Assembly: GCA_965225815.1 (NCBI GenBank)
Contig: CBDDBP010000004.1
Location: 85,074 to 149,073 of the forward strand
DNA from: Dehalococcoidia bacterium
GTDB lineage: Bacteria; Chloroflexota; Dehalococcoidia; DSTF01; WHTK01
Reading direction: 5' to 3'
Length of the DNA: 64,000 nt
The position numbers were made by a program, and so were the translations under genes. The notes under the pieces were generated by a model. It was given only the letters and a program-made list of their open reading frames with translations, did no database searches and was not told where the DNA came from. Shown piece after piece: positions 1 through 43,664 of the stretch (position 1 is the first letter of the stretch; the number at the start of each line of letters is the position of its first letter).

Positions 1-722
1 CGTAAGTCACCACGTCCACGCCTTCGACCGCATACTCCCGCAGCCGCATCGCCTCAGCGTCCGAAGCGCACAGCGCCAGCGTCCCACCCACCGGCACGTT
101 CGATGCGAATCCGGCGAACGCCTCCTGCACCGCTTCCCACGTCCCGTAATAGTCCAGGTGGTCCGCCTCCACGTTGGTCACCAGTGCCACCTGCGGGTGA
201 TAGCTCAGGAAGGCCCGGTCATACTCGTCCGCCTCGACCACGATGTGCGGGCCATCGCCCGCCGCCGCGTTCGTCCCCAGGTCGGCTACCTCGGCGCCTA
301 TCAGATAGGATGGGTCGCGGCCGGTCTGCGCCAGGATGTACGCCACCATCCCGCTCGTCGTGCTCTTGCCGTGGCACCCGGCGATTCCGACGCCCGTCTT
401 GCCCTGCATCAGCCGGCCCACCATTTCGGCTCGTTTGATCACCGAAATGCCACGCTTTTGGGCTTCGATAAGCTCCGGATTGTCCTCCGTCGCCGCCGAA
501 GTCGTCACCACTAGGTCAACATCGCCCACGTTCTCCGCCGCGTGCGGCCCGATGACAACCCGCGCCCCCAGCGCCGCGATCGCCTCCGTCACCGCCGTCT
601 CCCGCAGGTCGGACCCCGACACCTCAACCCCCCACGACAGCAATATCCGCCCGATCGCGGACATATGCGCCCCGCCGATCCCCACCAGGTGCACGCGTCC
701 CGGAATCAATTCGCCACTCACG
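1..722 (-). CDS. murC: UDP-N-acetylmuramate--L-alanine ligase, N-terminal part. The gene continues past the left edge of the window.
   Basis: The reverse-complement translation from ~722 reads VSGELIPGRVHLVGIGGAHMSAIGRILLSWGVEVSGSDL...GIAGCHGKSTTSGMVAYIL...EADEYDRAFL, which is the Mur ligase N-terminal and central domain. It sits in the classical position after murG. It is missing from the ORF track because it runs off the edge. Confidence 0.8.
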
Positions 723-1037
723 TCCCCATCATCTCACGCACCACACAACATGCGTCATTGCGAGGAGACGCCAGCCGACGCGGCAATTTCACGCCTTCAC
801 GTACGCCGCAACGCCGCGCATCCAACTCAACGGCACCCCATCGTCGAAGCTGTAGGTTTCAACCTGCAGACGCCCCTACACCCACAACCCGTAGTCTCCA
901 AACGCCAGCACGCGTACCGGAGGACGCAGCCCGAAAGCCGCCATCGCCGCGCGGAGCAAGGCCCACGTAGGGACGCAGCTTTAGCTCCGTCCGCAATGCC
1001 TCTACGCAGTCCACCCCTGACCTCTAACCCCCGACCC
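723..1037. repeat. Intergenic GC-rich repeat module between murC and murG. It is a diverged copy of the unit seen at 3345-3995 and contains the 28-bp core GTAGGGACGCAGCTTTAGCTCCGTCCGC at 967-994.
   Basis: GTCATTGCGAGGAG(A/G)CGCCAGCCGACGC(G/C)GCAAT occurs at 754-787, 3430-3463 and 3757-3790. A hairpin CTGTAGGTTTCAACCTGCAG lies at 850-869. The core motif recurs at 3649, 3963, 5765, 9067, 9283, 9499 and 10535. Confidence 0.8.
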
Positions 1038-2132
1038 CTAACTGCCCATCTCCACTAAAACCCTTGCCAGGTTCTCCGCCGCGTCCGGCCGCGCCAGCTT
1101 CGCCAACGCCGCCCGCATGTTCGTCAGTCGCGTCTCGTTGTTGATCAAGTACGTCACGGTGTCCTGCAACTGGTCCAGGTTGTTCTGCATCAGCATCACC
1201 GCCGCGTCGTTCTCCTCGAGGTATCGAGCGTTCGGTGTCTGGTCCCATCCTTCGTACTCCCCCGGCACCAGGATCGCCGGCAGCCGTGTCGCCGGCAGCT
1301 CCCCCAGCACCGATGCGCCCGCCCGCATCACCGCCATGTCCGCCGCCGCCATCGCCAGTGGCATCTCATCGTGCAGGTAGGCATAAAGGTGATACCGCGA
1401 CCGCAGCGCCTCCGGCAGCAGCTCCACACCCGCCCGCAGCCAGGGCTCATCGGCCACACCGCACACGTGGATCAACTGGCCGATCCCCAGGAAGCCCGTC
1501 GCCCAGGACGACACGGCGTGATTCAATCGGCTCGCGCCACTGCTCGCCCCGCTGACCAGCAGTGTCGGCAGACCCGAATCCAGTCCCAGCCGCTCCCTCG
1601 CATCCTCTTTTTCTGCTTCGAAAAAGACCTCACGCACCGGATACCCCGTCAGCACCGTCTTCTCGGCCGGCATCGTTGCCTGCGCCGGCGGCACCGTCAC
1701 GGCGATTCGGTCCGCGACCTTGGCCAGTGTCTTTACGGCAAGTCCGGCTTCGACGTCGGGCAGGAACAGCAGCAGCTTCTTTCGCCGCGCTCGCGCCGCC
1801 AGCCCAACCCCCACGCTGCCGTAGCCGCCGCTCGCGAACACCACGTCCGGCTTGAACTCGCCCAGGATGCTCAGCGCCTGCGCCGCCCCGGCAACGATCT
1901 TGAAGCCACCACGCACCGTGCCCATCACCGACCCGACACGCAGTGGGCCGGCCGTCACCGACCGAAACGCCATGCCCTCGCGCCGTGCGATGTCTTCGTC
2001 GATCTTCCCGCGCACGCCGATATACAGGAGCTCCAGCTCCTGGGCCTCAGGCAGCTTGCGTAGCGCGGTGGCCACAGCCAGCGCCGGATAGACGTGGCCG
2101 CCCGTGCCTCCACCACAAAACGCGATCCTCAT
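1038..2132 (-). CDS. murG: UDP-N-acetylglucosamine--N-acetylmuramyl-(pentapeptide) pyrophosphoryl-undecaprenol N-acetylglucosamine transferase
   Basis: 364 aa, beginning MRIAFCGGGTGGHVYPALAVA, the MurG glycosyltransferase family 28 signature. It overlaps ftsW by 4 nt. Confidence 0.9.
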   Translation of the reverse strand: MRIAFCGGGTGGHVYPALAVATALRKLPEAQELELLYIGVRGKIDEDIARREGMAFRSVTAGPLRVGSVMGTVRGGFKIVAGAAQALSILGEFKPDVVFASGGYGSVGVGLAARARRKKLLLFLPDVEAGLAVKTLAKVADRIAVTVPPAQATMPAEKTVLTGYPVREVFFEAEKEDARERLGLDSGLPTLLVSGASSGASRLNHAVSSWATGFLGIGQLIHVCGVADEPWLRAGVELLPEALRSRYHLYAYLHDEMPLAMAAADMAVMRAGASVLGELPATRLPAILVPGEYEGWDQTPNARYLEENDAAVMLMQNNLDQLQDTVTYLINNETRLTNMRAALAKLARPDAAENLARVLVEMGS

Positions 2133-3316
2133 ATTGGTGCGCTGCGTGTCCTTCTTTTGACCGGGCTTCTCGCCCTCACTGCTACCGGCCGCGGGGCCCG
2201 GACTTCCTCTCGGCTATACCTCGAAACGTTCAGCAGTATCCCAACCGCCGCCATAATCATGATCAATGAAGAGCCGCCGTAGCTCACGAACGGCAACGGG
2301 ATCCCCGTCAAAGGTATCGATCGTGTGATCCCGCCGATGTTGATCAGCGCCTGGAACGCGATCCAGCAGATCACTCCCATTGCCAGGTAGGCCCCGAACT
2401 CGTCCCGCGCGTTCATCGCCACTTTGAATCCCCGGTACACGAGGTAAGTAAATAGGCCGATCACGATCATCGCGCCGACGAAGCCGGTCTCCTCGCCGAT
2501 GATCGCGAACACGCCGTCCGTATGCGCCCCGGGTATATAGAAGAACTTCTGCCGGCTGACGCCCAGTCCCAGCCCTTCGATACCGCCGCTACCCAGCGCG
2601 ATCAGAAGCTGCAACGTATGGAACCCGACGCCCGACGGGTCATCCTCCGCCGAAGTGAAAGCCAGCACCCTGTCCGCACGATACGAACCGCCCAGCACCA
2701 GCAGGACGCCGGCCACCATGCCGATGCTCGCCAGCGTGAACACATGAATCATCGATCCGCCCGCCAGGAAGAACAGCGCCACCGTCGCCATCACCACGAT
2801 CGCCGCCGTTCCCGTATCCGGCTCCATCAGGATCAAAGCCGCCACGAGGCCAACCAGCAGGATGAAAGGCGCCAGGCCCAGCGCGAAGGTCTTGACCTCT
2901 CGCCCCCGCGACGCCAACCAGGCCGCTATATAAATGATCACTGCCAGCTTGGCGAACTCACTCGGCTGGAACGGTGGCAGGCCCCCAAACGTCATCCACC
3001 GACGCGCCCCGTTGACCTCCGTACCGATCGCCAGCACCGCCACCAAAGACAGCACTGCCAGCAGCATCAGAAGCGGGCTGAACAACCGCAGCCTGCGATA
3101 GTCCAACCGCATCAACCCGAACATAGCCACCAGGCCGATCAGCGAAGCGCCGAGTTGCCGAAACAGGAAGTAATTAACGTCGTCGTACTCCGCCAGCGCG
3201 ATCGCAAAGCTCGAGCTGTAAACAAAGATCAACCCAATGACCACCAACGCCAGCGTCGTCACCAGGATCGCGTAATCCGGCCTCCCCGGCTTCAACCTGA
3301 TGTTCCCCCTATTCAT
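2129..3316 (-). CDS. ftsW: Peptidoglycan glycosyltransferase FtsW (SEDS family)
   Basis: 395 aa polytopic membrane protein of the FtsW/RodA/SpoVE type. It lies between murD and murG in the dcw order. Confidence 0.8.
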   Translation of the reverse strand: MNRGNIRLKPGRPDYAILVTTLALVVIGLIFVYSSSFAIALAEYDDVNYFLFRQLGASLIGLVAMFGLMRLDYRRLRLFSPLLMLLAVLSLVAVLAIGTEVNGARRWMTFGGLPPFQPSEFAKLAVIIYIAAWLASRGREVKTFALGLAPFILLVGLVAALILMEPDTGTAAIVVMATVALFFLAGGSMIHVFTLASIGMVAGVLLVLGGSYRADRVLAFTSAEDDPSGVGFHTLQLLIALGSGGIEGLGLGVSRQKFFYIPGAHTDGVFAIIGEETGFVGAMIVIGLFTYLVYRGFKVAMNARDEFGAYLAMGVICWIAFQALINIGGITRSIPLTGIPLPFVSYGGSSLIMIMAAVGILLNVSRYSREEVRAPRPVAVRARSPVKRRTRSAPI

Positions 3317-4387
3317 CCCAGTCCAGTCTCATACCTACGCTCCGTCCAACCTCTGTAAGGGCGTGCCGTAAGGCCGTGCTTGATCGCGCTCGCGACGCCC
3401 ACAACGCGCCGCCCCGCCAAAGACCCCCTCGTCATTGTGAGGAGGCGCCAGCCGACGCCGCAATCCCGCGTCCACACCAACGCCCCAGCCCAGTTCACCT
3501 CTCCGCACCTCTTCAAAGCTGCAGGCTTCAACCTGCAGAACCGCATCCTCCAACCTCGCGCCGCCAACCCCCGAAACGGATGCAGCTTTAACTCCCTCCG
3601 AGGCGCTCTGTCCACAACTCCGCGCCTCCTCGAGCGCAGCCAACCTCCGTAGGGACGCAGCTTTAGCTCCGTCCGCTGCGCTCCGTCCAACCTCCGTAAA
3701 GCCGTGCTTGATCGCGCTCGCGACGCCCCGTCAAAGACCCCCTCGTCATTGCGAGGAGGCGCCAGCCGACGCCGCAATCCCGCGTCCACACCAACGCCCC
3801 ACCACAGTTCACCTCCCCACACCTCTTCGGTTCTGCAGGTTGAAACCTGCAGAACCGCATCCTCCAACCCCGCGCCGCCAACCCCCGTACGGACGCAGCT
3901 TTAACTCCCTCCGAGGCGCTCCGCCCACAACTCCGCGCCTCCTCGGGCGCAGCCAACCCCCGTAGGGACGCAGCTTTAGCTCCGTCCGCGGCGCTCCAAC
4001 CCAGTCCACCAAACGGTCTGTCCTGCCCAACGCCAGCAGGCGCCGCCCCATCCTCCACAGTCCCTCGCCTCGCAAGGAGAGGGACACGCGGCAGCGAGGA
4101 AGCGGTCGGCGCCCCGGCTTCAGTTATCAAAGCCGGTCGCGCAGCTGCTAGGCGTCCCTTACCCCCGAAGAGATCCCGAGTCCGCTGGGAAGTCATATGG
4201 TCCGGTCGATTCACTAAGACAGCGGGGTTAGTAGGGGCGCAACCCCTGCGGGGGGAGTCTGAGGGGTCTCCCCTCAGGGCTTTTGATGAACGGGCGAAGC
4301 GCACAAGCCCAACCGACAGGGCGGGCGCAGGTCGCGCAGCCTTCCGACGCCCCATGCGCCCGTACACCGCGAAAGCGTCTACGGTCC
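3317..4387. repeat. Composite intergenic repeat region between ftsW and murD. It holds two tandem copies of a ~315-330-bp unit (about 3345-3676 and 3677-3990), then an 'R2' hairpin element (GGGGCGCA(A/G)CCCCTGCGGGGGGAGTCTGAGGGGTCTCCCC, ~4231-4345) and a partial 'R3' fragment (~4100-4145).
   Basis: GTGCTTGATCGCGCTCGCGACGCC occurs at 3376 and 3704, a period of 328. The core GTAGGGACGCAGCTTTAGCTCCGTCCGC occurs at 3649-3676 and 3963-3990. The palindrome CTGCAGG(C/T)TTCAACCTGCAG appears in each unit. Confidence 0.85.
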
Positions 4388-5731
4388 TCACGCCTGGCCC
4401 CCAAGCGCCAGCACATGCCGCCGAAAATCCTCGCCCCGCTGCTCAAACTTCTCGTACGCGTCGAAGCTCGTGCACGCCGGCGACAGCAACACCACGTCGC
4501 CCTCCTGCGCCAACCTCGAAGCCGCCCTCACCGCGTCCGCCACCGTCTCAACCCGCGTCGCGTCCAGCCCCACGGCCTTCGACGCCTCCGCTAACATCCG
4601 TCCCGCCTCCCCGAAACACACCACCGCCCGGCACGATCGCTTCGCCTCGGCCAGCATCTGCTCCAGCGGCAACTGCTTTTCGCGCCCGCCCACCAGCAAC
4701 ACGATCGGCTCCTCAAACGACCGCAGCGCCGCCAACGTCCGCTCCGGCGCCGTCGCGATGCTGTCGTTGAAATAGTCCACGCCATTCACAGTCGCCACCG
4801 GCTCAAGTCGATGCGCCGGCGGCTTGAACTCCCGCACCGCCTGCCCCACCGCCTCCGGCGCCAGCCCGCAGGCCGATGCCACGGCCGTCGCCGCCGCCAC
4901 ATTCGCCACGTTGTGCTGCCCCCGGAGCGGGATTTCCCTCACCCTCACCACCTGGTAGCTCTTGCCGGCTTGTCGCATGTAGACCACGCCGTCTTTCACG
5001 TAGGCCCCGTTCATCCCGTGGTCGCCTCCCAGGCTGAACAGCAGCACGTCGCTCGGCGCCGTCGACGCCATCTCGCGCGACATCGGGTCGTCGGCGTTAA
5101 ATACGCACGCCGCGCCGGGCGCCTGAAACTCAAAAATACGGCGCTTCAGCGCCACGTACTCCTCCCAGGTGAATTGGTCTAGATGATTCGGCGTCACATT
5201 CGTCAGCGCCGCCACGTCCGGGCTGCGTTCCAGGAGCTGCAGCTGCGTATGGCTCACCTCCAGCACCGCCGGCTGCGACGCCTCCGCGCCTTCAAGCAAC
5301 CCCATCAACCCGACGCCGATGTTGCCCCCCATCACGTGCGCCCGGTTCGCCGCCGTGTACATCGAATCCACCAGCGCCGTCGTCGTCGTCTTCCCGCTCG
5401 ACCCCGTGATCCCCACGATCGGCCCCGGGTACTTCTCGAAAAACAGGCTCGTCATCGAACGTACCGGCGTCCCCGCCTCGCGCGCCGCGATCACCGCCGG
5501 TATCCCCAACGGCACGCCTTGCGACACGCAGACCAGGTCCGCGCCCTCAACGTCCTCCGGTGAATTCTCCCCAACCCGAAACGTAACGCCGCGACCCGTC
5601 AGCTCCTCCCGCACCTGCGCCAGCGACTCCGGCACCCGCACGGTGCTCACCAGCACCTCATCCCCCTGCGCCATGAAATACCGCGCCAGGTCCTCCCCCT
5701 CGATCGAAAACCCGATCACCGTGACCCTCAC
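4388..5731 (-). CDS. murD: UDP-N-acetylmuramoylalanine--D-glutamate ligase
   Basis: 447 aa with the GITGSSGKTTT P-loop. Mur ligase family, in the murD position. Confidence 0.9.
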   Translation of the reverse strand: MRVTVIGFSIEGEDLARYFMAQGDEVLVSTVRVPESLAQVREELTGRGVTFRVGENSPEDVEGADLVCVSQGVPLGIPAVIAAREAGTPVRSMTSLFFEKYPGPIVGITGSSGKTTTTALVDSMYTAANRAHVMGGNIGVGLMGLLEGAEASQPAVLEVSHTQLQLLERSPDVAALTNVTPNHLDQFTWEEYVALKRRIFEFQAPGAACVFNADDPMSREMASTAPSDVLLFSLGGDHGMNGAYVKDGVVYMRQAGKSYQVVRVREIPLRGQHNVANVAAATAVASACGLAPEAVGQAVREFKPPAHRLEPVATVNGVDYFNDSIATAPERTLAALRSFEEPIVLLVGGREKQLPLEQMLAEAKRSCRAVVCFGEAGRMLAEASKAVGLDATRVETVADAVRAASRLAQEGDVVLLSPACTSFDAYEKFEQRGEDFRRHVLALGGQA

Positions 5732-5870
5732 GCCGCACCCCCAACGCTCCTGGCCGTCCCCAACCGTAGGGACACAGCTCTAGCTCCGTCCGCGACGCCC
5801 TAACGCCGTCCACCAACGCTGCCTGCTCGTCGCCTAACCTCCAGCGCCTCATACGGCTTCCAGCCCATCC
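5732..5870. repeat. Short intergenic repeat between murD and mraY carrying the core variant GTAGGGACACAGCTCTAGCTCCGTCCGC (5765-5792).
   Basis: Same core motif as in the other dcw intergenic regions. Confidence 0.7.
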
Positions 5871-6842
5871 TCACTCCACCACCGCCAAACCCACGCCCGC
5901 CAATCCCCCCAGCAACCCGATCACCCAGAACCGCGTCACCACCTGCGTCTCCGTCCATCCCCCGAGCTGAAAGTGGTAATGGATCGGCGCCATGCGGAAC
6001 ACCCGCCGGCCGCCCGTCTTCTTGAAATAGGCAATCTGGATCACGTCCGACAGCCCCTCCGCCACGAACACGATGCCGATCACCGGCAGCAGCAGCCACC
6101 AGCCCGTCATGAACGCCAGCACCACCAGCCCGATCGCCAGCGCCTGTGACCCCACCTCGCCCATGAACACCTGCGCCGGATAAGCGTTGAACCACAGGAA
6201 CGCCGCCAGCGACCCGGCCACCGCGAACCCGAACGCCGCCAGCTCCTCCTGCCCTTGCGACAGTGCGATCGCCCCGTAGGCTCCGTAAGCGATCGCACTC
6301 ACGCCGGCCATCAGCCCGTCCATCCCGTCCGTAATCACGATGCCGCTCGTCCCGGCAACCATCACCCCGATAACGACCGGTATGTACAGCACGCCCAGGC
6401 TGTAGTCGCCAAAATGCGGCACGAGCACCGATTCCAGGTCCATCTCGTAATACAGCACCAACGCCACGATGACGCCCACCGCCACCAGCACGCCCCACTT
6501 CACCACCCAGAGCCATCGCTCGTGTCCCGCCGTCTCCTTCGATCCCACTAGCGTCTGAAAATCATCGAATGTCGCCAGCACTGCCGCCGCACTCATCGCG
6601 CCCAGAGGCAGCCAAACGTCCCCGGCTCGTAGCGCCGCGAGCGGTATCGCCGCCGCCGCAATGCCAACAAGAAACATCACGCCGCCCATCGTCGGCGTCC
6701 CCGCCTTCTCTGCGTACGCCTCCGGCGCCTCCGTGTCGGCCTGCTTGCCCAGCTTGCGCCGCCGCAGCTCCGAAACCACGGGACCGCCAACCGCCAGAGT
6801 CACCACCAGCGCCAGGCATCCCGCCAACATCGCCTCTACCAC
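5871..6842 (-). CDS. mraY: Phospho-N-acetylmuramoyl-pentapeptide-transferase
   Basis: 323 aa membrane protein, MraY family. Confidence 0.9.
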   Translation of the reverse strand: MVEAMLAGCLALVVTLAVGGPVVSELRRRKLGKQADTEAPEAYAEKAGTPTMGGVMFLVGIAAAAIPLAALRAGDVWLPLGAMSAAAVLATFDDFQTLVGSKETAGHERWLWVVKWGVLVAVGVIVALVLYYEMDLESVLVPHFGDYSLGVLYIPVVIGVMVAGTSGIVITDGMDGLMAGVSAIAYGAYGAIALSQGQEELAAFGFAVAGSLAAFLWFNAYPAQVFMGEVGSQALAIGLVVLAFMTGWWLLLPVIGIVFVAEGLSDVIQIAYFKKTGGRRVFRMAPIHYHFQLGGWTETQVVTRFWVIGLLGGLAGVGLAVVE

Positions 6843-7267
6843 GGACTCACCCCACTGTAGTCAGACCGCTTTGGTGAGAGCCGGCTTGGCTCGCCGAAAC
6901 ACAGCGAATTCGTTCTGATTATGCCTGGTACTCTGGCGTCAGCAGGGGAAGTGGGGGCACAGCCCCCGCGGGGGGAGTCTGAGGGGTCTCCCCGCAGGTT
7001 AACTTTGATAGATGGGCGAAGCGCACAAGCCCACCCGACAGGAAGGGCGCCGGTCGCGCAGCCTCTACGCCCCGTCCAGCCGTCTTCAGTGGGGTCTCGG
7101 GGCCAAGCCCCGGCTTCAGTTATAGAGCCCGCAGGCCGCGCAGGCCTCAACGCCTCGTCCAGCCGTCTTCAGTGGAGTCTCGGGGCCAAGCCCCGGCTTC
7201 AGTTATAGAGCCCGCAGGCCACGCGGTCCTCAACGTCTCGTACTGAATTGATGACCTCATGGCAACA
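6843..7267. repeat. Intergenic repeat region between mraY and ftsI. It holds an R2 element (~6945-7070) followed by two tandem 82-bp R3 units (7073-7154 and 7155-7236).
   Basis: The R3 unit CGTCCAGCCGTCTTCAGTGG(G/A)GTCTCGGGGCCAAGCCCCGGCTTCAGTTATAGAGCCCGCAGGCC... is duplicated head-to-tail. It carries the hairpin GGGGCCAAGCCCC. Confidence 0.85.
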
Positions 7268-9004
7268 CTAGCGCCCCTGCACCAGCGCGTCGTTCGGTCG
7301 CACATTCAGATACGCCAGGATCTTCGGCGCCAACTTGCCGAACACCGGCGCCGCCACGATGCCGCCCAACGGGTCGTCCTGGGGTTGATCGATCTTCACT
7401 AGCACGATGATCGCCGGGTCGTCAACCGGCGCGAACCCTACGAACGTCGCCAGCGTCGAATCCAGCGCATAGCCTGTCGGTATCGAAACCAGCGTCGTCC
7501 CCGTCTTGCCGCCCACGTCGTAGCCTCTCACCTGCCCCAGGTGCCCGGCCACGCCGTCAACGACCTGGTGCATCATCTCCACCATCGTCTCTGACGTCCT
7601 CGGCGATACCGTCTGCCGCACAACGACCGGCTCATAAACCCTTCGGCCGTCCGGTCCGTCGATTTCCGCAACGATGTACGGGCGCATCAGCTGCCCGCCG
7701 TTAACCACCGACGCGATCGCCGTAATCACCTGCAATGGCGTCGCCGCGATACCCTGCCCGTAGCTGTTTGTCGCCAGGTCCGACGCGTACCACTCGTTAT
7801 CTTTGTGCGTCCGCAGCAGCCCCGCCGACTCGCCGCCCAGTCCCGAGTGCGTTGGCTCGCCGAAGCCGAACCGCTCGATGCTGTCATAAAGCAGCTCCGG
7901 CCCGATCTGGTCGCTCAGCCAGATCGCTCCTGTGTTCAGGCTCTTCTGCAGCAGTTGCGTCATCGTCGTCTCGCCGTTCGCGCTGAAGTCCCAGTTCGCG
8001 AACGTGTATCCACCCTTCTCCACCACCCCGGAGTCGTAGTACGTCGTGTTCGGATTGACCAGCCCCAGGTCGATCGCGGTGGCCATCGTGATCACCTTCA
8101 GGACCGACCCCGGCTCGTACGCATCCGTCACCGCCCGGTTCCGATACAGGTCCTGCGCCGGGTTGTCGAGGTCAAGTTCGGAAAGCCGGAAGCTCGGACG
8201 GCTCGCCATCGCCAGGATCGCGCCCATCTTCGGCTCCATCACGATGATGCTGCCGCCCGACGCCTCGTGCGACGCAAGCTGAAAGTCCAGCTCGTCCTCG
8301 ACCAGGCTCTGGATATAGCGGTCGATCGTCAGTCGAACGTCCGAGCCCGGCTGTCCCGGTTGCTCCTGCGTCCGGCCCACGGCGATCGGTTGACCGCCGC
8401 CATCTCGTTCGAAGTACAACACTCCGGGCTGTCCGCCCAGGATCGACTCCAGGTCCGCTTCCAATCCGGCCAGGCCGCTGTGATCGCGACCCAGGAAGCC
8501 CAGCAGCGTTGAGGCCGTATCGCCCTCTGGATAGAACCGCTCCGTCGCGGCGGCCACCGTCACGCCCGGAAGCGCCAGCCGGTCGATCGCCAGGCCGGCC
8601 GAAAACTCGATGCCGTCCGCCAGCAACTCAATCGGCCCGTCTGCCTCAGCCAGCAAATGCGCCAGCATCAACTCAGAATCACCGCCCAGGTTTTCCGTGA
8701 GGCCGGCGGCCGTCTCCTGCGCCTTCGTAATGTCTTCTGCCCAGGCGCGCCGGTCGATATACACGTCGAACACGTCGATCGAAGTCGCCAGCGGGAAGCC
8801 GCTGCGGTCCAGGATCGCCCCGCGCTCCGACCGCACCAGCTTCTTCTCCCCGTGCACTTCCTGCACTTCGAGCCGGTAGTCTTCGTGCTCCAGCACCTGG
8901 ATCTGCACCAGGCGCCCCACGACGCCGCCGGTCGAAAGCAGCAACACCATCGCCAGCACCCCGAAGCGCCACGTAAACCGAGACCGCCCCGCCATCAGGC
9001 CCAA
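7268..9004 (-). CDS. ftsI: Peptidoglycan D,D-transpeptidase (penicillin-binding protein 2/FtsI class)
   Basis: 578 aa with an N-terminal membrane anchor, a PBP dimerisation domain and a transpeptidase domain. It lies in the dcw position after ftsL. Confidence 0.85.
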   Translation of the reverse strand: MGLMAGRSRFTWRFGVLAMVLLLSTGGVVGRLVQIQVLEHEDYRLEVQEVHGEKKLVRSERGAILDRSGFPLATSIDVFDVYIDRRAWAEDITKAQETAAGLTENLGGDSELMLAHLLAEADGPIELLADGIEFSAGLAIDRLALPGVTVAAATERFYPEGDTASTLLGFLGRDHSGLAGLEADLESILGGQPGVLYFERDGGGQPIAVGRTQEQPGQPGSDVRLTIDRYIQSLVEDELDFQLASHEASGGSIIVMEPKMGAILAMASRPSFRLSELDLDNPAQDLYRNRAVTDAYEPGSVLKVITMATAIDLGLVNPNTTYYDSGVVEKGGYTFANWDFSANGETTMTQLLQKSLNTGAIWLSDQIGPELLYDSIERFGFGEPTHSGLGGESAGLLRTHKDNEWYASDLATNSYGQGIAATPLQVITAIASVVNGGQLMRPYIVAEIDGPDGRRVYEPVVVRQTVSPRTSETMVEMMHQVVDGVAGHLGQVRGYDVGGKTGTTLVSIPTGYALDSTLATFVGFAPVDDPAIIVLVKIDQPQDDPLGGIVAAPVFGKLAPKILAYLNVRPNDALVQGR

Positions 9005-9894
9005 CCCCGCCCGTCATGCGACGCCGCAGTGCCCAGGTCCGTATCGCCGAGCGCAGCAAGGCGACCGTAGGGAGGCAGCTTTAGCTCCGTCCGCTGCGCC
9101 TCGTAACGGCGATCAACGTCGAGGCCAGCCCCACCAACCCCAGCGGCGTCAGTACGGGCGCAGTGCATCGTGAAGTCCGCCGAAGGGCCCCTGCGCGGAG
9201 ACCCTGAGCGGTGCCCCCTAAGGGTTAGCAAAGTAGATGCCGGAGTGCCCAGGTCCGTGTCACTGAGCGCAGCAAGGCCACCGTAGGGACGCAGCATTAG
9301 CTCCGTCCACAACGCCGCATGCCCCTCATCTAACGCAAACTCAGCCCCACCAACCCCAGCGGGGTCAGAAGGGGCGCAGTGCATCCTGAGCTCCGCCGAA
9401 GGTTCCCTGCGCGGAGACCCTGAGCAGTGCTCCTTCAGGCTTAGCAAACTAGATACGCGAGCGCCCAGGTCCGTATCGCCGAGCGCAGCAAGGCCACCGT
9501 AGGGACACAGCTTTAGCTCCGTCCGCAACTCCTCATGCCCCTCATCCAGCGCAAACTCAGCCTCACCAACCTCAGCGGGGTCAGTAGGGGCGCAGCCCCT
9601 GCGGGGGGAGTCTGAGGGGTCTCCCCGCAGGTTAGCTTTGATAGAAGGGCGAAGCGCACAAGCCCGCCCGAAAGGAAGGGCGCCGGTCGCGGAGCTAGAC
9701 GCCACGGCGTCAGCTACACCAACGCTCTCGGCGCCGCCTTTAGTGGGGTCTCGGGGCCAAGCCCCGGTTTCAGTTAGCAAAGCAGGACGCGCAGCCCTTC
9801 CTCGACAAACCGTCCTCAAGCCAAAGCGCACCGGAGCACCTGTCATCTCAACTCCCACGCCCTTGCCCCGGCGCCCTCTCGTCTGTCCTCTAGA
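9005..9894. repeat. Intergenic minisatellite between ftsI and ftsL. It holds three tandem copies of a ~216-bp unit (starting ~9029, ~9246 and ~9461), then an R2 element (~9590-9700) and an R3-like element (~9720-9800).
   Basis: The 28-bp core occurs at 9067-9094, 9283-9310 and 9499-9526, a period of 216. The GTGCCCAGGTCC anchors lie at 9029, 9246 and 9461. The units carry a variant hairpin GCCGAAGGGCCCCTGCGCGGAGACCCTGAGCGGTGCCCCCTAAGGG. Confidence 0.85.
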
Positions 9895-10326
9895 TCACGG
9901 CAGCGGAAGCGCCCGGTACAACGATTGCCACCACGGCTCCACGTCAGTGCTCTCAGCCAATGGCTCAACCAGTGGACGCGGCAACAAGACCCCCTCGGGA
10001 GCCTCAACCTCAACCGACAGGTAGCTGACGTTTCGCCCCTGGATCATTCCCAGTTGCTCTCGTGCCACCCGCTCAGTGCGGTCCAGTGATGTCAGCTGTG
10101 CTACCTCAGCCTGCAGGTCATATACCTCAGCCTTCAAGGCGATTCGCTCCGCCTCCAGGCGCTGCAGTTGTTGACCCGTGTTTGCCGAGCTGCTCGATTG
10201 CACAACCTGGAGAAGCGCGATAACCGCCGAAATCGCAAGGGCGACGGCTATCGCGCGACGGGGCCCCCAGGTTGCTGCCGATGGCGCCTCTAAGGACGCC
10301 GGACCAAGGCGATCGAGTGTTGCCAT
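9895..10326 (-). CDS. ftsL: Cell division protein FtsL-like (septum formation initiator family)
   Basis: 143 aa with one TM helix (AIAVALAISAVIALL) followed by a coiled-coil segment (LQRLEAERIALKAEVYDLQAEVAQL). It lies between rsmH and ftsI. Confidence 0.55.
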   Translation of the reverse strand: MATLDRLGPASLEAPSAATWGPRRAIAVALAISAVIALLQVVQSSSSANTGQQLQRLEAERIALKAEVYDLQAEVAQLTSLDRTERVAREQLGMIQGRNVSYLSVEVEAPEGVLLPRPLVEPLAESTDVEPWWQSLYRALPLP

Positions 10327-10934
10327 GCCAACACCTCACGCCGTAATCGTGGACCGCAGCCCACGACGTGATGTCTCAAACCTCTCGTCGAGACGAAGCT
10401 CTAGCTCCGTCCACAACGCCTCGTGCCTCTCATCCACACCGACGCCAGCAGCCTCGGAATCCACACAGTCCATATCAGACGAGCTCGGAACGTCTCCGCC
10501 CAGGTCCGTATTGCCGAGCGCAGCAAGGCGGCCGTAGGGACGCAGCTTTAGCTCCGTCCGCAACCCCTCATGCCCCTCATCCAGCGCAAACTCAGCCCCA
10601 CTAACCTCAGCGGCGTCAGTAGGGGCGCAGCCCCTGCGGCGGGAGTCAGAGGGGTCTCCGCTAAGGTCGTCTGATAAAGGGGCGGAGCGCACAAGCCCAA
10701 CCGTCAGGGCGGGCGCAGGTCGCACAGCCCCAAACGCCTCGTACCCGCGATCAAACGCAACCTCGGCCACACCAACCCCAGCAGGGTCAGTAGGGGCGCA
10801 GCCCCTGCGGCGGGAGTCTGAGGGGTCTCCCCTCAGGTCGCTCAGAAGAAGAGCGGAGCGCACAAGCCCAACCGATAGGGCGGGCGTAGGTCGCGTAGCT
10901 TCAAACGCCTCAACGAAGTCCAACCCCACCACGC
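10327..10934. repeat. Intergenic repeat region between ftsL and rsmH. It carries the core motif (10535-10562, and a partial copy at ~10389-10412) and two R2 elements ~179 bp apart (~10616 and ~10795).
   Basis: GTCAGTAGGGGCGCAGCCCCTGCGGCGGGAGTC(T)GAGGGGTCTCC occurs twice. The ORF 10336..10938 (-) is built entirely from these repeats. Confidence 0.8.
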
Positions 10935-11879
10935 TCACGCCGCCAGTCGCTCCGCCGCCCGCAACTTCGCGCTACGGCTCCGCGGGTTTGCCGCGACTTC
11001 CTCCCGCGATGGCGTCACAGTCCCCTTCGTAACCGGCTTCAGCGTGGCCTTGTGGTCACACGTACAGACCGGCTGCGATGGTGGGCAAACACAATCACGC
11101 GACTCTCGAGCAATGAACTGCTTAACAATGCGATCCTCAAGTGAGTGGTAACTGATCACCACTAGTCGGGATCCAAAGCCAAGCAGACCGTGAGCCCAGG
11201 GCAACGCCTCGGCCAGGCTGGCTAGTTCCTGGTTGACGGCAATGCGAAGGGCCTGAAACGTCTTGGTGGCGGGGTGGATTTGACTTCCAGTCCTCCGGCC
11301 CACGGCCTGCTCGACGGCTTTGGCTAGTTCGGTGGTCGTCCCCAAAGGACGGCCGTTGACAATGGCTCTGGCAATACGGCGGCTGCGCCGCTCCTCGCCA
11401 AAACGCCAGATGATATCTGCTAATTCTTCTTCCGGCGCCTCGTTCACCCAGTAAGCAGCCGTCGGCTCCTCACTCGGACCGAAGCGCATGTCCAGCGGCG
11501 CCTCCACGCGAAAGCTAAACCCCCGCACGCTCGCCAATTGGTGCGATGAAAGCCCGAGGTCGAACAGAATCCCGTTCACCGGCGCGAATCCGCCCTCGCG
11601 GCACAGCCGGTCCAGCTCTCGAAAGTTCCCCTGCACGATGGCGACACCGTCTCCGAATCGCGACAGCCGCTCCCGCGACATCTCAATCGCCCTGGGATCC
11701 GCGTCGATTCCCAGCAACGTGCCACCCGGCTTCGCAGCCTCCAGGATCGCCTCGGCATGGCCGCCACCGTTCACCGTGCAGTCCACGTAGCGGCCGCCCG
11801 GGCGCACGTCCAGCGCCGCGATTACCTCTCGCGGCATCACCGGGTCGTGCGTCACACGTGCGTCCATCACCAGCGTCAT
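10935..11879 (-). CDS. rsmH: 16S rRNA (cytosine1402-N4)-methyltransferase RsmH (MraW)
   Basis: 314 aa, MraW family, with a SAM-binding fold. It overlaps the mraZ stop by 4 nt. Confidence 0.9.
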
Positions 11880-12298
11880 TCCGATTCCAGGCTCTGCAGG
11901 AACATCGCCTCTTCGGCTCCTAACGCCGTCTCGAAATCATCTGAGTTCCAGATTTCGATACCCTCACCCGCCCCAACGACGATCACCTGGGTCTCCAGGT
12001 TCGCCCATTGGCGCAGCTGCGGTGGGATCAACACACGGCCCGCCCGGTCCAGCTCCGCTGGGAACGAACCGCTAAAGAACGCCCGGCGCATCACGCGACC
12101 ATTGCGCGTCGTCACCGGCTCGTTCATGTACAGCTGGGCTTGTCCGTCGAAAGAATCGGCCGGATAGGCGCGGATGCAATGGTCCGGCGTGCCTTGCGTC
12201 AGGATGATCCCCTGCATCAGTGCATCCCTGTAACGCGGGGGCATCGGGATCCGCCCTCGCTCGTCCATCGCGTATTCCTGCTTGCCGAGAAATAGCAT
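11876..12298 (-). CDS. mraZ: Transcriptional regulator MraZ
   Basis: The protein begins [24 protein letters not shown] (MraZ/UPF0040 duplicated domain) and runs to [10 protein letters not shown]. The start was moved to the internal ATG at 12296-12298, because the longer 165-aa ORF adds an unlikely N-terminus. Confidence 0.8.
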
Positions 12299-12339
12299 GT
12301 GCCGGGGCCCCGTCCCCCGAGAGAAGCTCCGGATCGTCC

Positions 12340-12405
12340 GGTATTTCTCCCATATCTTCCCACAAGCTCCCATATCCTACCATTCAAATATCCACTGTCA
12401 ACCAA
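12340..12405 (-). promoter_or_regulatory. Candidate mraZ/dcw promoter with MraZ-box-like direct repeats
   Basis: On the minus strand there is TTGACA (fwd 12396-12401), a 17-nt spacer and TAGGAT (fwd 12374-12379). Three TGGGA direct repeats at ~10-bp spacing (fwd ~12347-12372) follow, resembling the GTGGG-type triple repeats bound by MraZ. Confidence 0.4.
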
Positions 12406-12445
12406 TTTGCCTCCCTGACCGCACTCGCCCCACGAAAAGCCCACA

Positions 12446-12484
12446 AAAAGGCCCCGGCGTTTTCGCCGGGGCCTTTTAAACCGA
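12446..12484. terminator. Bidirectional rho-independent terminator hairpin
   Basis: AAAAAGGCCCCGGCGTTTTCGCCGGGGCCTTTTAAA is a perfect 10-bp GC stem flanked by A/T runs on both sides. It follows the 3' end of the substrate-binding-protein gene (minus strand). Confidence 0.7.
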
Positions 12485-12505
12485 AGTTCGGTTAAAGGTT
12501 GGAGC

Positions 12506-14418
12506 TTAGCCTTGGGGCAAGCTCTCATCCAGATACATCGTGTGCAGGCCCCACATGTCGTACATATTCACGCGCGAGTCTCCCTGGTAGCCCAGGAAGT
12601 TGCGCAGGCGCGGCCAGGTCAGCTTGAAGGTGTCCGATGTTCCTGGCTGCGGTACGTTGTAAATCACGCTACTCGCGTAGCGCTGCAAGTCGTGGATGAT
12701 CTCTCGACGCTTCTCAGAGTCGAACTCACCCTTCGCCGACTCGACCAGGCGGTCGATCTCCGAGTCCGCCACTGGGCCGTTCGGGCTACCAAGTCCGAGT
12801 TGACCAGAAGTAATGCCAGCCTTGGAGTAGTAGCGCCACACCCAGAGGTCCGTCGGGTCTGGAGAGGTCACCGCACCAATGGCGTAGGCCCAGCCCATGT
12901 CAGGGATCTTGAAGTGGCCCAACTCAGTCACAACCTTGGGCAGATAGTCCAGGTTGTAGTCCAGCGGGAAAGCATCGATCTCGAAACCGATCTCGCGCGC
13001 GAACTGGTCCATAACCTCGACCTGCTCGGCATACGTCGGCCCGAACACGGCGTTTACGCGGCCGGTAACGAAGCCCGGGAATTTGCCACCCGGATAGTCC
13101 GCCTCGGCCGCTGCCTTCAGCTTCATCGCCTCGGCGACGTTGTATTCGTAGAACTTCGCGTTCTCACCGAAAGTCTCGGCGTCGCGCGGGTCAAGAGTCC
13201 AGTCAGGCGTGTAGCCCATCTGGGTGTACCAGTACGTATCCACCGGCAGACCTTCAGCCCGGAACTTGTCGACGTCAAAGAAAGCATCGATGTAGGCGTC
13301 GCGGTCCTGCGACATTGAAAGCGCCTGGCGCACGCGAACGTCCAGGAAGGGCGAAGGGCCGCCACCGATGTCATCCCAGCCGAATCGCATCGAGGCACCT
13401 GGGCTGTTGGATGCCGCCACGTAGGAGAACATGTTCAGGTCAGGAGACGCCTTCTTGGTCTCCAGCACGTCCCTGGAAGCCACACCACGGGCAATCACTG
13501 GGATCTCGCCCGCCTTGAACTGGGCCAGCTTTTGTGCGTACTCGGGCAGAAGAACGAGTTCAATTTCGTCCAGGAAGGAAGCGTTTTCCTTGTCCCAGTA
13601 GTTCGGGTTCGCCTTGTAGACGATGTTGACAGACGGCTCGAACGAATCGAGCTGGTAGCCGCCCGTGCCTATCTGAGTTTCCTTCGCGTCGAAGGTGTCG
13701 CCGATCTCCCTCGGGTAGATCGAGCCAACCTCACCGGTAACCATGCTGGACAGTCGCTGGAAAATCATCGACGTCGGCTCGGACAGATTCAGCACCAGCG
13801 TGTGGTCGTCCGGTGCTTCCCAACCGATGATCGGCGCTGCCGGGTTGATTGAGTGGGCACTCGATGCCTTGTTGTTGGGCGAGTCGCCCGAGATGAAGTA
13901 CTCCCATGTCTTTAGGACGTCTTCGGCAACGAATTCGCGACCGCTTACCGGGGCCTTGTCGTGCCACATCACACCCTTGCGCAGCTTGAAAGTGATCTGC
14001 AGCTTATCGCTGCTGACCTCCCATGATTCCGCGAGATGAGGCTCTACTTCTGCGTATGGAGAAGGCTGGCCCGCGGCACCAGCGACGTTTTTTACCAGGT
14101 TTCGTACGCTGCTCCCTGGAGCTGGTTCAGCTGAATTTGGCCCTGGGCTTTTCCATCCCAGTGCAGCGGATCGCGGTTCGACCCGTTGTCGATGACCAGC
14201 TTGCCGCCACGGACTGCCTTGTCGACCTCCTGCGCGCGCGCCGCCAGCAGACCGCTTGTGTCTCGCGCTGCGGCCTGCTCAGGCTCGTCGTCACCGCCGC
14301 CATCACAAGCGGCCAGGAACGCAGCCGCACCGGCGGTCATTCCCGTCGCAGCAATCGCGCGGCGCCTTGTCATTCTCCTGTCGAGTACCTTGTTCCAGTA
14401 GCTCGGCATTGTCAGCAA
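12506..14418 (-). pseudogene. ABC transporter substrate-binding protein (family 5, peptide/nickel type, with a TAT/lipoprotein signal). It is interrupted by a frameshift in an A6 run at ~14087-14093.
   Basis: The N-terminal ORF 14092..14418 (MTRRRAIAATGMTAGAAAFLAAC, ending ...LQGAAYETW*) and ORF 12506..13972 belong to one gene. After the run GGTAAAAAACG the minus strand reads VKNVAGAAGQPSPYAEVEPHLAESWEVSSDKLQITFKLRKGVMWHDK, continuous with MMWHDKAPVSGREF. This is the SBP_bac_5 motif PxLAESWEVS.D.L..TF.LRKGV.WHD. Confidence 0.75.
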
Positions 14419-14697
14419 TCCTCCTCCAATGCACTCCCATAGGCACCGTGATCGGCACAGTACTTCTATCTTCGTAGTACGAAGAATCCTCGCATAGGGC
14501 TTAAAGCGTCTATAGCAATATGTTTCCGATATCGAAAATTTCTATTCCTCACAAACTATCAATAGTTATTTATTTTGAACGCATTCGATTCTCCGGAAAG
14601 CCCAGTAGCCCCCATCTGTCACGGGATCGACTCGACTTCACTTCGTCTGCAGCTTCTGGCCGTTCCGGCTCACCGCCAATGCTAGAATCGGCACCTT

Positions 14698-15201
14698 ATG
14701 ACGATTCGCGCCGCTGTCCTAACGCTCAGCGACAAGGGTGCCGGCGGCCAGCGGGTCGATACCGCCGGCCCAGCCGTAGCATCCCTACTGACTTCGATCG
14801 GCGCCCTCGTCGTTGAAACGGCGATCCTGCCCGATGACCGTGAAGCAATCGCTTCGCAGCTCCGCAGCTGGGCCGACGAATCCAGCGCCGACCTCATCCT
14901 AACCACAGGCGGCACCGGCCTCTCACCCCGTGATGTCACTCCCGAGGCGACCCTGGACGTGGCCGACCGCCTTGTCCCCGGCATCTCGGAGCTGATGCGC
15001 GAATCAGGCCGTAAGAGCACTCATCTGTCCTCTCTCTCGCGCTCCGTTGCTGTTACTCGGGCACGCGCGCTGATCATTAACTTGCCTGGCAGCGAGCGTG
15101 GCGCCCGCGAAAGCCTTGAAGCCATCCTCGAATTGCTCCCCCACGCCGTCGAGACGCTCCGCGGAGATTCCGGCGAAAGCCACCCCGTCGATCAGGTCTA
15201 A
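14698..15201 (+). CDS. mogA: Molybdenum cofactor biosynthesis protein MogA/MoaB family
   Basis: 167 aa with LSDKGAGGQRVDTAGP...LILTTGGTGLSPRDVTPEAT, the MoCF biosynthesis domain signature. Confidence 0.8.
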   Translation: MTIRAAVLTLSDKGAGGQRVDTAGPAVASLLTSIGALVVETAILPDDREAIASQLRSWADESSADLILTTGGTGLSPRDVTPEATLDVADRLVPGISELMRESGRKSTHLSSLSRSVAVTRARALIINLPGSERGARESLEAILELLPHAVETLRGDSGESHPVDQV

Positions 15202-15723
15202 ATGCGCCTGGAAGAGGCCACCTTCAACTTGCCCAACGGTCTCGTGGAATTCCTCCGAGAGGTCGGTAGTGGAGAGAGCGGCTTCGGTCGCGTACCTGAA
15301 GTAGCTGAGGGCCGACTTACCATCGATGCTTATCTGAAACGCGAAGTAGAATCGTCGCGGGGTAAGGTTCTGCCCGACGACCACGTCCCGCATACGACGT
15401 ACTGGCTTGTCGACGATAACGACCGGATTCATGGCATGTGTCGTTTGCGCCACCACCTCAACGAAACACTTCTGATACACGGTGGACATATCGGTTACTA
15501 CATACGTTCAGAGTCCCGAGGTAGGGGCTTTGGAACTTGCCTTCTCGCACTGGCTCTTGAAGAGGCGAAGAACATTGGTATCTGGCAGGCTCTGCTCACC
15601 GTTGGTTCTGACAACGATCCCTCCAACCGCGTCATCGAAGCCAACGGCGGCGTCATGGAAGACGAACGCTTCGACCCCGACAGCAGGCCTTACCGCCGCA
15701 ATTGGATCGACCTCGGGCGATAA
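15202..15723 (+). CDS. GNAT family N-acetyltransferase
   Basis: 173 aa with [26 protein letters not shown], the acetyl-CoA binding motif A. Its ATG is immediately after the mogA stop. Confidence 0.65.
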
Positions 15724-15731
15724 TAGTGACC

Positions 15732-16508
15732 ATGCGCATTGACGTCCTGACCTTGTTTCCCGAAACCTTCGAAGGTCCACTGCAAGCCAGCATCCTCGGC
15801 CGAGCCCTGCGCGAAGGCGTCGCCGAGGTACACCTGCACAACATCCGCGACTACGCCACGGACAAACATTCAATCGTCGATGACTATGCCTACGGCGGCG
15901 GCCCCGGCATGGTCATGAAACCCGAACCGCTCGCGGCGGCAGTCGAATCCGTGCAAGCGGCCGTTCCGACCCCGGCTCGCGTCGTCCTCCTCACCCCACA
16001 GGGGCGTCTATTCAACCAGCAGGTCGTCGATGAGCTCGTCGCTGAGCCGCGCCTTATTCTCCTCTGCGGCCACTACGAAGGCGTCGACGAGCGCGTCCGC
16101 GAGCACCTTGCCGATGACGAGATCAGCATCGGCGACTTCGTGCTCTCTGGCGGCGAATACGCCGCGATCGTCGTTATCGATGCCCTCGTTCGCCGCCAGC
16201 CCGGCACGCTCGGCTCCTCCGACTCCCTGCTTGAGGAGTCGCATTCCGACGGGTTGCTGGAATACCCCCAATACACCAGACCGGCGGAGTTTCGCGGATG
16301 GCAGGTACCGGATATACTGCTCTCCGGTAACCACGGCGAAATCGCGAAATGGCGACGCCAGCAACGGATCCTCCGCACAGCCAGGCGTCGACCCGATCTG
16401 CTTCAACAAGCGCTTCGGGAACCTGGACCGGCCTGCCTCACCGAGGAAGAAATACGCCTTGCGGCGGAAGCAACGAAAGCGCCGCAAGAAGACGAGGACG
16501 AAACCTAA
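15732..16508 (+). CDS. trmD: tRNA (guanine37-N1)-methyltransferase
   Basis: [25 protein letters not shown], the TrmD signature. The start was placed at the internal ATG after the GNAT gene's stop. Confidence 0.9.
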
Positions 16509-43640: not shown

Positions 43641-43664
43641 TCTGTGATCCTCCTTCTCGATAAG

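Follow-up and report, generated by a model that had tools for sequence, protein, structure and literature searches.

The dcw (division and cell wall) cluster is among the most conserved and most compact of bacterial operons, and the locus described here raises the question of how most of its genes could come to be separated by long non-coding spacers. The locus occupies the left 12.4 kb of a 64-kb stretch of DNA from a Dehalococcoidia bacterium (contig CBDDBP010000004.1, positions 85,074 to 149,073; hereafter the window, to which all coordinates refer unless another contig is named). On its minus strand lie mraZ, rsmH, ftsL, ftsI, mraY, murD, ftsW, murG and murC, every one of which was confirmed by Pfam. 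Six of the eight junctions are filled by a non-coding repeat mosaic of 139–1071 nt each, ~3.46 kb in total, so that mobile repeats make up ~30% of the distance from mraZ to the start of murC; sister lineages have acquired such DNA at these junctions independently. We consider it fairly probable (about 60%) that small, non-autonomous mobile repeats of the REP (repetitive extragenic palindrome)/BIME (bacterial interspersed mosaic element) type have clustered in the spacers and are tolerated only when translation can bridge them, as has been proposed for the MIRUs (mycobacterial interspersed repetitive units).

The spacers had been described in an original prediction, made from the sequence alone, which attributed them to one mosaic family of hairpin-forming repeats. 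The gap lengths given there hold within 1–9 nt: 316 nt for murC/murG (315 in the prediction), 1071 for ftsW/murD, 139 for murD/mraY, 425 for mraY/ftsI, 890 for ftsI/ftsL (899 with the ftsI start at 8995) and 608 for ftsL/rsmH. The 4-nt overlaps of murG with ftsW and of rsmH with mraZ were likewise confirmed.

Repeat families of the spacers

The 28-bp core that had been predicted in eight copies was found in exactly this number when up to three mismatches were allowed (967-994, 3649-3676, 3962-3989, 5766-5793, 9067-9094, 9283-9310, 9499-9526 and 10534-10561). Three degenerate copies (3574-3601, 3887-3914 and 10387-10414) lie in direct orientation, as do the others; the number expected from shuffled sequences is ~0. 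On the plus strand, i.e. antisense to the operon, the core reads GTAG directly 5' of the stem-loop GGACG-c-AGC/TTTA/GCT-c-CGTCC, and a tetranucleotide with a hairpin is the layout that defines REPs (PMC6006769, PMC3733652). GTAG immediately precedes GGACG...CGTCC in all eight copies of the window and in the majority of the 127 found in related genomes, a minority of the latter carrying a variant tag. The hairpins fold with minimum free energies of -11.6 and -13.7 kcal/mol (z -2.5 and -3.1). Their basal stem comprises 5–6 bp before a 1x1 mismatch, which is shorter than the 7 bp of the search rule in PMC6006769.

A scan of one genome per prokaryotic species revealed core matches at 70 loci in 12 Chloroflexota metagenome-assembled genomes (MAGs), labelled Dehalococcoidia, Chloroflexia or Chloroflexota; 28 of these loci are in a single MAG (JBBQVO01), and the copy number reached 127 once mismatches were allowed. 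The borders of the copies are sharp, and only the ~40-nt core is common to the window and the 70 loci, the other modules not being shared. The copies are mostly extragenic (5 of 84 were intragenic according to crude gene calls). Their inner stem covaries between AGC/GCT and ACC/GGT, the pair being G-C in 12 distinct variants, C-G in six and broken in none, and many copies in the relatives are arranged as closely spaced inverted doublets of the REPIN type (L005, L007, L016, L054 and L070; L numbers denote loci and contigs outside the window). At four loci (L053, L056, L030 and L037) core copies with GTAG pointing outward flank an open reading frame (ORF) with HUH and Y motifs, for example the ORF 3564-4229 of L053, which has REPs at 3608(+) and 4103(-) on its two sides. 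Pfam Y1_Tnp (PF01797) was matched by each of the four (E 1e-11 to 3e-13). In the NCBIfam scan, which covered the ORFs of L053 and L056, both passed the cut-off of the equivalog NF047646 for RAYT (REP-associated tyrosine transposase), with 106 and 94 bits versus the required 80. The likeness to REP/BIME elements noted originally is therefore well founded: the core has the GTAG tag and hairpin of a REP, and in related MAGs its copies are dispersed, make up inverted doublets and flank RAYT genes. By analogy with the REPs of Escherichia coli, the core would be mobilized by a RAYT (Y1 HUH) transposase acting on single-stranded DNA; the REP and RAYT definitions and the lagging-strand single-strand mechanism are given in PMC6006769. 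These observations add a REP-RAYT pair, and a dispersed element of ~150 nt described below, from uncultured soil Chloroflexota, in which such elements have been little described.

Two further RAYT-like genes were detected, L126 1158-1919 (NF047646, 109 bits) and L121 480-1592 (65 bits, below the cut-off). They are flanked by neither core nor A-B repeats and may serve other REP families.

GTAG-tagged REPs have been reported from the same phylum, namely GTAG-23 of Thermomicrobium roseum, which is clustered in blocks (Di Nocera et al. 2013, PMC3733652). The resemblance, based on description rather than on sequence, extends to the coexistence of GTAG- and CGTC-tagged palindromes. Blocks of 4–8 core-REP variants in the same orientation, ~90–230 nt apart, were observed in L011 (3855-5790) and L056 (1894-2248) and recall the "clustered in large blocks" behaviour of GTAG-23. 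In the same survey REP arrays flank every gene of an exopolysaccharide (EPS) cluster in Thauera (PMC3733652); head-to-tail (same-orientation) pairs are, unlike here, reported there as rare, and CGTC repeats are not listed there for Chloroflexi.

The R2 hairpin of the original prediction (five copies in the window) is part of a larger element, A-B, of ~125–150 nt by alignment, which consists of an "A" part, an A-rich linker, the hairpin CYGAGGGG-ACA-CCCCTCRG and a C-rich tail ending in ...GCCCC(CG)CTAC. The "A" part corresponds to a further module, GGGCGAAGCGCACAAGCCC, present in five copies and adjoining R2. A scan of metagenomes with a degenerate R2 pattern identified 111 loci, just one of them in a dcw cluster (L086, murD|ftsW). 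An nhmmer profile built from 99 metagenome copies found five A-B elements in the window (4213-4362, 6933-7077, 9558-9711, 10592-10745 and 10767-10909), all inside dcw spacers. RNAalifold missed the B1 hairpin of the alignment because of gap columns, and the pairs were therefore counted explicitly: 39 cells contained compensatory double changes, versus 8.6 in shuffles. In L140 (9139-9422) a tandem array of ~35–36-nt units was observed, each unit being the C-rich tail of A-B (CTCCC..CGCATGGGCTGCGCCCCCGCGACCCCTG).

The remaining modules are smaller. R3 occurs in three copies, as does the palindrome CTGCAGGTTGAAACCTGCAG (850-869, 3519-3538 and 3833-3852, folding z -6.3), and for R2, R3 and the palindrome alike, chance occurrence in shuffles was ~0, which bears out the prediction that these modules occupy the gaps. 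A unit of 83 nt joining the core to a flanking module is present five times. A palindromic module on the plus strand, CGTCATTGCGAGGAG..GCAATC, was found at 753-810, 3430-3487 and 3744-3801; its tag, CGTC (CGTCATTGCGAGG...), is the one by which Di Nocera et al. characterize their second REP superfamily (PMC3733652). Members of this superfamily are defined by CGTC at one end, a stem of 8–9 bp opening with complementary A/T and a loop of 4–5 nt (PMC3733652). In the present module (CGTC|ATTGCG...CGCAAT) the tag and the stem beginning with A/T are present; the outer stem, of 6 bp, has a second stem-loop inside it.

Core, A-B, R3, palindrome and CGTC modules are combined differently in each spacer and in each relative, which is the mosaic arrangement typical of BIMEs, where modules are likewise mixed with other conserved motifs. 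Since in other genomes each module can be present without the rest, they represent several dispersed families (at least three), and the single mosaic family originally proposed has to be abandoned. Their present arrangement would be the product of insertion combined with local tandem duplication, traces of which are visible in the spacers (3 x 216, 2 x 171, 2 x ~314 and 2 x 83 nt). The A-B element and the CGTC-tagged palindrome are separate dispersed families without a known transposase. As in the REP/BIME/REPIN and RAYT systems of E. coli and Pseudomonas (PMC6006769, PMC3116915), GTAG stands at the foot of an imperfect hairpin, the copies are dispersed, mostly extragenic and also present between genes of operons, and in the related MAGs a Y1 HUH transposase gene is flanked and inverted doublets exist. 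The dcw copies differ from these systems in being same-orientation singletons inside larger composite units, in forming arrays of up to 1 kb that fill most junctions of an essential operon, in the short basal stem mentioned above and in the stop-free sense frame that the spacers keep.

All module copies in the window share one orientation and none lies outside positions 750-10910, a repeat scan of 11-64 kb having given matches at chance level only; both points had been correctly predicted. A strict orientation rule relative to transcription was nevertheless rejected, because core copies in related MAGs were sense to flanking co-directional genes in 19 cases and antisense in 20, i.e. without a preferred orientation, and A-B elements outside dcw were sense to genes in 17 cases and antisense in 28 (some of the flanking genes were confirmed by Pfam). 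Of 30 pairs of neighbouring A-B elements outside dcw whose members are separated by more than 300 nt, 28 point the same way; the uniform orientation is thus a regional property of the A-B family and not a peculiarity of dcw. Candidate causes are strand-specific insertion into single-stranded DNA, as known for Y1 transposases (PMC6006769), and local copying.

On the antisense (plus) strand, the R2 hairpin at 4258-4278 and the R3 hairpin at 9751-9767 are followed by T-rich tracts and have terminator-like scores; they might block antisense transcription into the dcw genes. A terminator role as the main cause of the uniform orientation was dropped, because A-B also lies antisense in gaps between confirmed co-directional genes; that the A-richness upstream of its hairpin is the same across contexts was a further ground.

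Independent filling of the same junctions in relatives

The dcw clusters of relatives were located via MurD homologues. The same modules, all in the sense orientation, are present at other junctions in L072 (MurD identity of 89%) and in L073, L189 and L190 (85%), in L074 (86%), where the filling extends downstream to ftsZ, and in L191 (81%). L186 (79%) has a compact cluster with two traces of 27–46 nt only, and L187 and L188 (62–63%) have compact clusters without modules. In the window, L072, L073, L074 and L191, antisense hits were seen only at the palindrome or overlapping sense hits. The junction mraY|murD illustrates the variability: it is a 4-nt overlap in L072 and a spacer of 28 nt in L186, 139 in the window (with one core REP), 298 in L073, 337 in L074 and 489 in L191. 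The window spacer equals the 28 nt of L186 plus 111 nt (37 x 3). As the contents differ between relatives, these are independent fillings of one junction. The insertions, for which related strains had been named as a test of presence or absence, thus proved to be present in some relatives, absent from others and different among those that have them; they are recent, clade-restricted, repeated and polymorphic. No module copies were found in the flanks of the relatives (4–5 kb upstream of mraZ) or in the rest of the window, which makes dcw a hot spot of local extent within the clade. Mobile elements would accordingly have been inserted repeatedly, and recently, at dcw junctions in one clade of soil Chloroflexota.

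The same comparison bears on the alternative that the mosaic is a local duplication only, or an artefact in the assembly of a MAG. The tandem duplications listed above would fit such an explanation, as would the observation that short-read contigs of the organism break at repeats. It is already contradicted, however, by the presence of modules in 12 MAGs and 111 metagenome contigs and by the same architecture in independent assemblies, of which L189 and L190 agree with each other, and we give it practically no credence. The original prediction had pointed out that absence of the motifs elsewhere would mean a local duplication only; they are widespread in relatives, and absence is ruled out.

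A role at the RNA level had also been put forward for the repeats, namely as signals of stability or processing. Hairpins located after cistrons could act as barriers to 3'-exonucleases or as RNase sites and so set the stabilities of transcript segments. The local hairpins of core, R2 and palindrome are indeed stable (z -2.4 to -6.3) and kept by covariation, all copies in the operon have a single orientation, and E. coli REPs can stabilize upstream mRNA and affect termination and translation (PMC6006769). Nevertheless, close relatives have unrelated fillings, or none, at the same junction, a transposase that recognizes the hairpins at the DNA level would lead one to expect covariation just as much, and elsewhere the core shows no orientation preference while A-B is more often antisense (28 antisense versus 17 sense). 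The repeats were rightly predicted to form hairpins as far as the local structures are concerned, but this does not hold for the gaps as wholes, whose folding is close to that of dinucleotide-shuffled sequence (z -0.04 to -1.9). Moreover, translation across the spacers would melt the hairpins. We therefore regard an adaptive RNA-level function as improbable. On the interpretation that we prefer, that of mobile repeats bridged by translation, the hairpins would serve the propagation of the elements at the DNA level, and an mRNA-stabilizing role is neither supported nor required.

Searches for known RNA features gave little. No match in the window reached the Rfam gathering score, and with permissive thresholds the sole match with E<1 in 1-13000 was at chance level and inside ftsI; a tRNA search revealed nothing relevant. 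Intrinsic terminators on the sense strand were limited, within the spacers, to one weak site (9252-9240), and their totals equalled those of shuffles. Because there is no excess of sense terminators and one promoter-like site upstream of mraZ (TTGACA-16-TAGGAT with TG, 12374-12401, minus strand; sigma-70-like by consensus match only), the repeats are probably co-transcribed with the operon.

Stop-free sense frames across the spacers

Open frames were examined in 23 filled spacers of five non-redundant genomes. A spacer was counted as spanned when an open frame covered at least 95% of it, dinucleotide-preserving shuffles served as the null, and P values were Poisson-binomial; L072 was left out of the final test on account of fragmented gene calls, which are probably due to indel errors. 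An open sense frame spanned 12 of the 23 spacers, versus 3.4 expected (P=8e-7), while the antisense strand showed no excess (7 of 23, 7.9 expected, P=0.76). The frames often begin at a start codon overlapping the upstream stop (RTGA) and often end at a stop that overlaps the downstream start or precedes it by a few nucleotides (ATGA, GTGA, TGATG). In the window, the rsmH|ftsL spacer contains an open sense frame of 200 codons (10336-10938, minus strand), whose GTG overlaps the rsmH stop (GTGA) and whose stop lies 9 nt before the ftsL ATG, and in ftsL|ftsI one of the sense frames runs through 299 codons without a stop, as far as a TGATG located where ftsI begins. Open sense frames run from GTGA to GTGA at mraY|murD of L073 and L074, and one of 193 codons lies at ftsQ|ftsA of L074. 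At murD|ftsW the 313-nt spacer of L189 and L190 is bridged by 104 codons (L189), the 379-nt spacer of L086 by 126 codons and the 1246-nt spacer of L191 by an ORF of 417 codons from ATGA to ATGA, with no stops in this frame versus 11 and 22 in the other two. The compact state of this junction is an RTGA overlap, and in filled states RTGA is found at both ends of the insert.

How such spacers arise and persist can be outlined as follows. Arrangements would persist only if they contain one stop-free sense frame reaching from the upstream stop, or close to it, to the downstream start or its vicinity; ribosomes would continue translating through the spacer and so reach the next gene, and translational coupling would be kept. 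The benefit would lie in preserving termination-reinitiation coupling and in avoiding Rho-type polarity on long untranslated RNA. Ribosome bridging is the role proposed for MIRUs in mycobacterial operons, and no functional protein would be encoded by the spacers.

Are the long frames nonetheless genes? That the spacers encode real, fast-evolving repeat proteins, and hence that the dcw cluster has extra genes, might be suggested by long sense ORFs bounded at the edges of neighbouring genes and by metagenome pipelines that call genes there (L191 3143-4396, L074 17826-18404). A Pfam scan of the long minus-strand spacer ORFs, however, gave no match, and their composition is unlike that of the neighbouring genes: GC content at third codon positions (GC3) is 0.62–0.70, versus 0.67–0.87 in dcw genes (0.80–0.87 in the five largest), at second positions (GC2) 0.56–0.71 versus 0.44–0.51, and the codon score is at most 0.06 per codon versus 0.11–0.37. 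Substitutions between tandem copies are spread evenly over the three codon positions (13/16/13, 22/24/24, 27/29/25 and 21/21/20), which indicates that the peptide is not selected; what seems to be maintained is freedom from stops alone. In addition, the content is not conserved in relatives and is made of repeats that lie in either orientation elsewhere. Such proteins are very unlikely. As regards coding genes in the spacers, which the original prediction had named as a contrary outcome, long sense ORFs are thus present, but they are not conserved protein genes. Metagenome callers label further repeat-built spacer ORFs as proteins without a Pfam domain (L074 19648-19911 and L191 1-354, besides the two mentioned above), and these are likely to be a source of spurious "hypothetical proteins" in Chloroflexota MAGs.

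A more serious competitor, unlikely in our judgement but deserving of attention, is that the spacers are purely selfish or neutral REP/BIME clutter, in which GC-rich repeats copied in phase, and not selection, produce long sense ORFs. The elements would then build up at any site where their insertion leaves genes intact. The genome-wide dispersal of the families and the polymorphism of fillings between close relatives agree with this, about half of the spacers are unbridged, tandem copying of a unit that is open by chance inflates ORF length, and labelling of such ORFs as hypothetical proteins by gene callers is also consistent with it. It does not readily explain that the excess is sense-specific, that it survives the collapsing of tandem copies (P=0.007 and 0.012 for the two bridged cases of the window), or that an open frame recurs in independent fillings, such as the murD|ftsW spacers of 313, 379 and 1246 nt. 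Tandem copies, moreover, have diverged by 20–37% without gaining a stop in the bridging frame, although their substitutions fall evenly over codon positions. Tandem periods in bridged spacers are all multiples of three (216, 216, 171 and 150), in contrast to those of unbridged spacers (313/314 and 83). Spacer lengths at a given junction usually share phase (mraY|murD 28/139/298/337, ftsQ|ftsA 21/39/567, ftsA|ftsZ 43/49/265, rsmH|ftsL 158/608), and in element-free relatives the short spacers are already bridged by mini-ORFs. Outside dcw, spacers with antisense A-B elements showed no excess of gene-strand ORFs and those with sense elements a weak one.

Several observations nevertheless weigh against translation-bridged mobile repeats as the full explanation. 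Eleven of the 23 spacers are not spanned, among them murG|murC in the window, L189 and L191; the window murD|ftsW spacer is spanned only by two overlapping ORFs, and mraY|murD of the window has one in-frame stop. The frame tests are not fully independent, as some fillings share ancestry and tandem copies are involved, and only the length of the open frame is informative, because the RTGA found at the downstream start is in part inherited from the overlap of the ancestral genes. Single-base assembly differences can falsely break or create frames and blur the phase counts. Differences of this kind were seen between L073 (11344-11657, a 312-nt spacer) and L189/L190 (11344-11658, 313 nt) and at ftsL|ftsI (330 versus 331 nt); in such G/C-rich spacers they are probably homopolymer errors of long reads. 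Bridging alone does not account for the uniform orientation, since the A-B element contains one open frame on each strand. As to mobility, the dispersal of the core and its flanking of RAYT genes appear from related MAGs rather than from the clade of the window itself. No RAYT gene was found in the 64-kb window or beside A-B elements, and the window contains no inverted doublets, all 11 core copies being direct, whereas REPINs are typically inverted doublets.

The comparison with MIRUs made originally proved apt with respect to function: the repeats lie between cistrons, all point one way, and the stop of one gene is often connected with the start of the next by a sense ORF. MIRUs are inserted at start codons and bring a coupled ORF with them (PMC12548453), lie between operon genes in the same direction as the genes, vary between strains and contain ORFs whose ends overlap or abut the flanking stop and start codons, as is the case here in 12 of the 23 spacers and not in the other 11. 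They are, however, direct units of 40–100 bp in Mycobacterium, whereas the present modules are hairpins of 28 bp to 150 nt from several families, one of which has a known type of transposase, with tandem periods of 83–314 nt and ORFs of 100–417 codons in a Chloroflexota host; the likeness is one of layout.

Rickettsia palindromic elements (RPE) insert in-frame inside genes and become part of the protein. They offer a parallel, being small palindromic mobile repeats that persist in translated sequence by keeping the frame open, but they are intragenic, whereas what would be translated in the dcw cluster is an ORF of its own, located in the spacer from one gene to the next (RPE sequences and intragenic REPs are treated in PMC3733652).

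It is conceivable, at somewhat less than even odds, that the repeats are "operon-compatible", i.e. that they settle at the junctions of an essential, translationally coupled operon because they carry, or have been filtered for, a stop-free frame that hands ribosomes on. They would then be a convergent counterpart of MIRUs built from REP/RAYT-type hairpins, and the dcw cluster would amount to a natural experiment: spacers of up to 1.2 kb, translated but meaningless, are put up with between genes of cell division. If stop-free frames are indeed selected, the insertions that an operon can accommodate would be determined by ribosome continuity between cistrons (coupling, or protection from polarity). 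The MIRU strategy would have arisen independently in a distant phylum from REP-type elements, and many "hypothetical proteins" of Chloroflexota MAGs would be translated spacers, not genes.

Gene layout of the cluster and neighbouring features

All genes and spacers described below are on the minus strand. The partial murC (2-721, the 5' part, with a GTG start at 721; Pfam Mur_ligase and Mur_ligase_M) is separated from murG (1038-2132) by the 316-nt spacer 722-1037, which carries a core REP, the palindrome and the CGTC-tagged module, without a bridging ORF. Between ftsW (2129-3316) and murD (4388-5731, a 100% match to P0001) lies the 1071-nt spacer 3317-4387, with one A-B element, four core or core-like REPs and a 313/314-nt duplication bearing the palindrome and the CGTC module; GTGA coincides with the stop of murD and ATGA with the start of ftsW. 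Its two ORFs comprise 242 codons (3663-4391, GTG overlapping the murD stop, codon use not gene-like, no Pfam match) and 184 codons (3313-3867, stop overlapping the ftsW ATG in ATGA).

The 139-nt spacer 5732-5870, with one core REP (5766-5793), precedes mraY (5871-6842), which is followed by the 425-nt spacer 6843-7267, containing two 83-nt R3 units (7061-7226) and the A-B element 6933-7077; an ORF in this spacer (6836-7150) terminates 4 nt inside mraY. The ftsI gene (7268-9004) probably starts at the ATG at 8995, since this yields 575 aa, the length seen in relatives. The spacer to ftsL is then 899 nt long (8996-9894; 890 nt with the start at 9004) and contains an R3 unit (9715-9797) and the A-B element 9558-9711; a core REP is present in every one of the three 216-nt units repeated in tandem at 9030-9677. 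Between ftsL (DivIC family, 9895-10326) and rsmH (10935-11879) the 608-nt spacer 10327-10934 holds A-B elements at 10592-10745 and 10767-10909 (part of the 171-nt tandem), the core REP 10534-10561 and the degenerate core 10387-10414. The cluster begins with mraZ (11876-12373). Upstream of its promoter-like site, at 12440-12475, is a hairpin with a T-run (GGCCCCGGCGAAAACGCCGGGGCCTTTTTG), and the two together probably mark the boundary and start of the dcw transcription unit.

In the clade of the window ftsI is directly followed by mraY (7268-6842), and murE and murF are not in the cluster; in the 62% relative L187 (7666-9030) one Mur ligase gene lies between ftsI and mraY. Foreign genes were encountered after murG, namely an alpha/beta-hydrolase (Peptidase_S15/AXE1) on the opposite strand in L072 (13689-14654) and a zinc alcohol dehydrogenase in a different relative (contig of P0015), which indicates that the murG|murC junction accepts gene-sized insertions too.

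Elsewhere in the window, three regions of 0.5–1.3 kb (43011-44275, 14419-15003 and 15490-16007) contain no confident gene and no Pfam, tRNA, Rfam or repeat match. Counts of such "empty" gaps are rough, as at least two genuine genes outside dcw escaped the codon-based gene caller. Among the apparent gaps that do hold genes are those with a luciferase-like monooxygenase at 20467-21807(-) and a peptide deformylase at 23533-24324(+).

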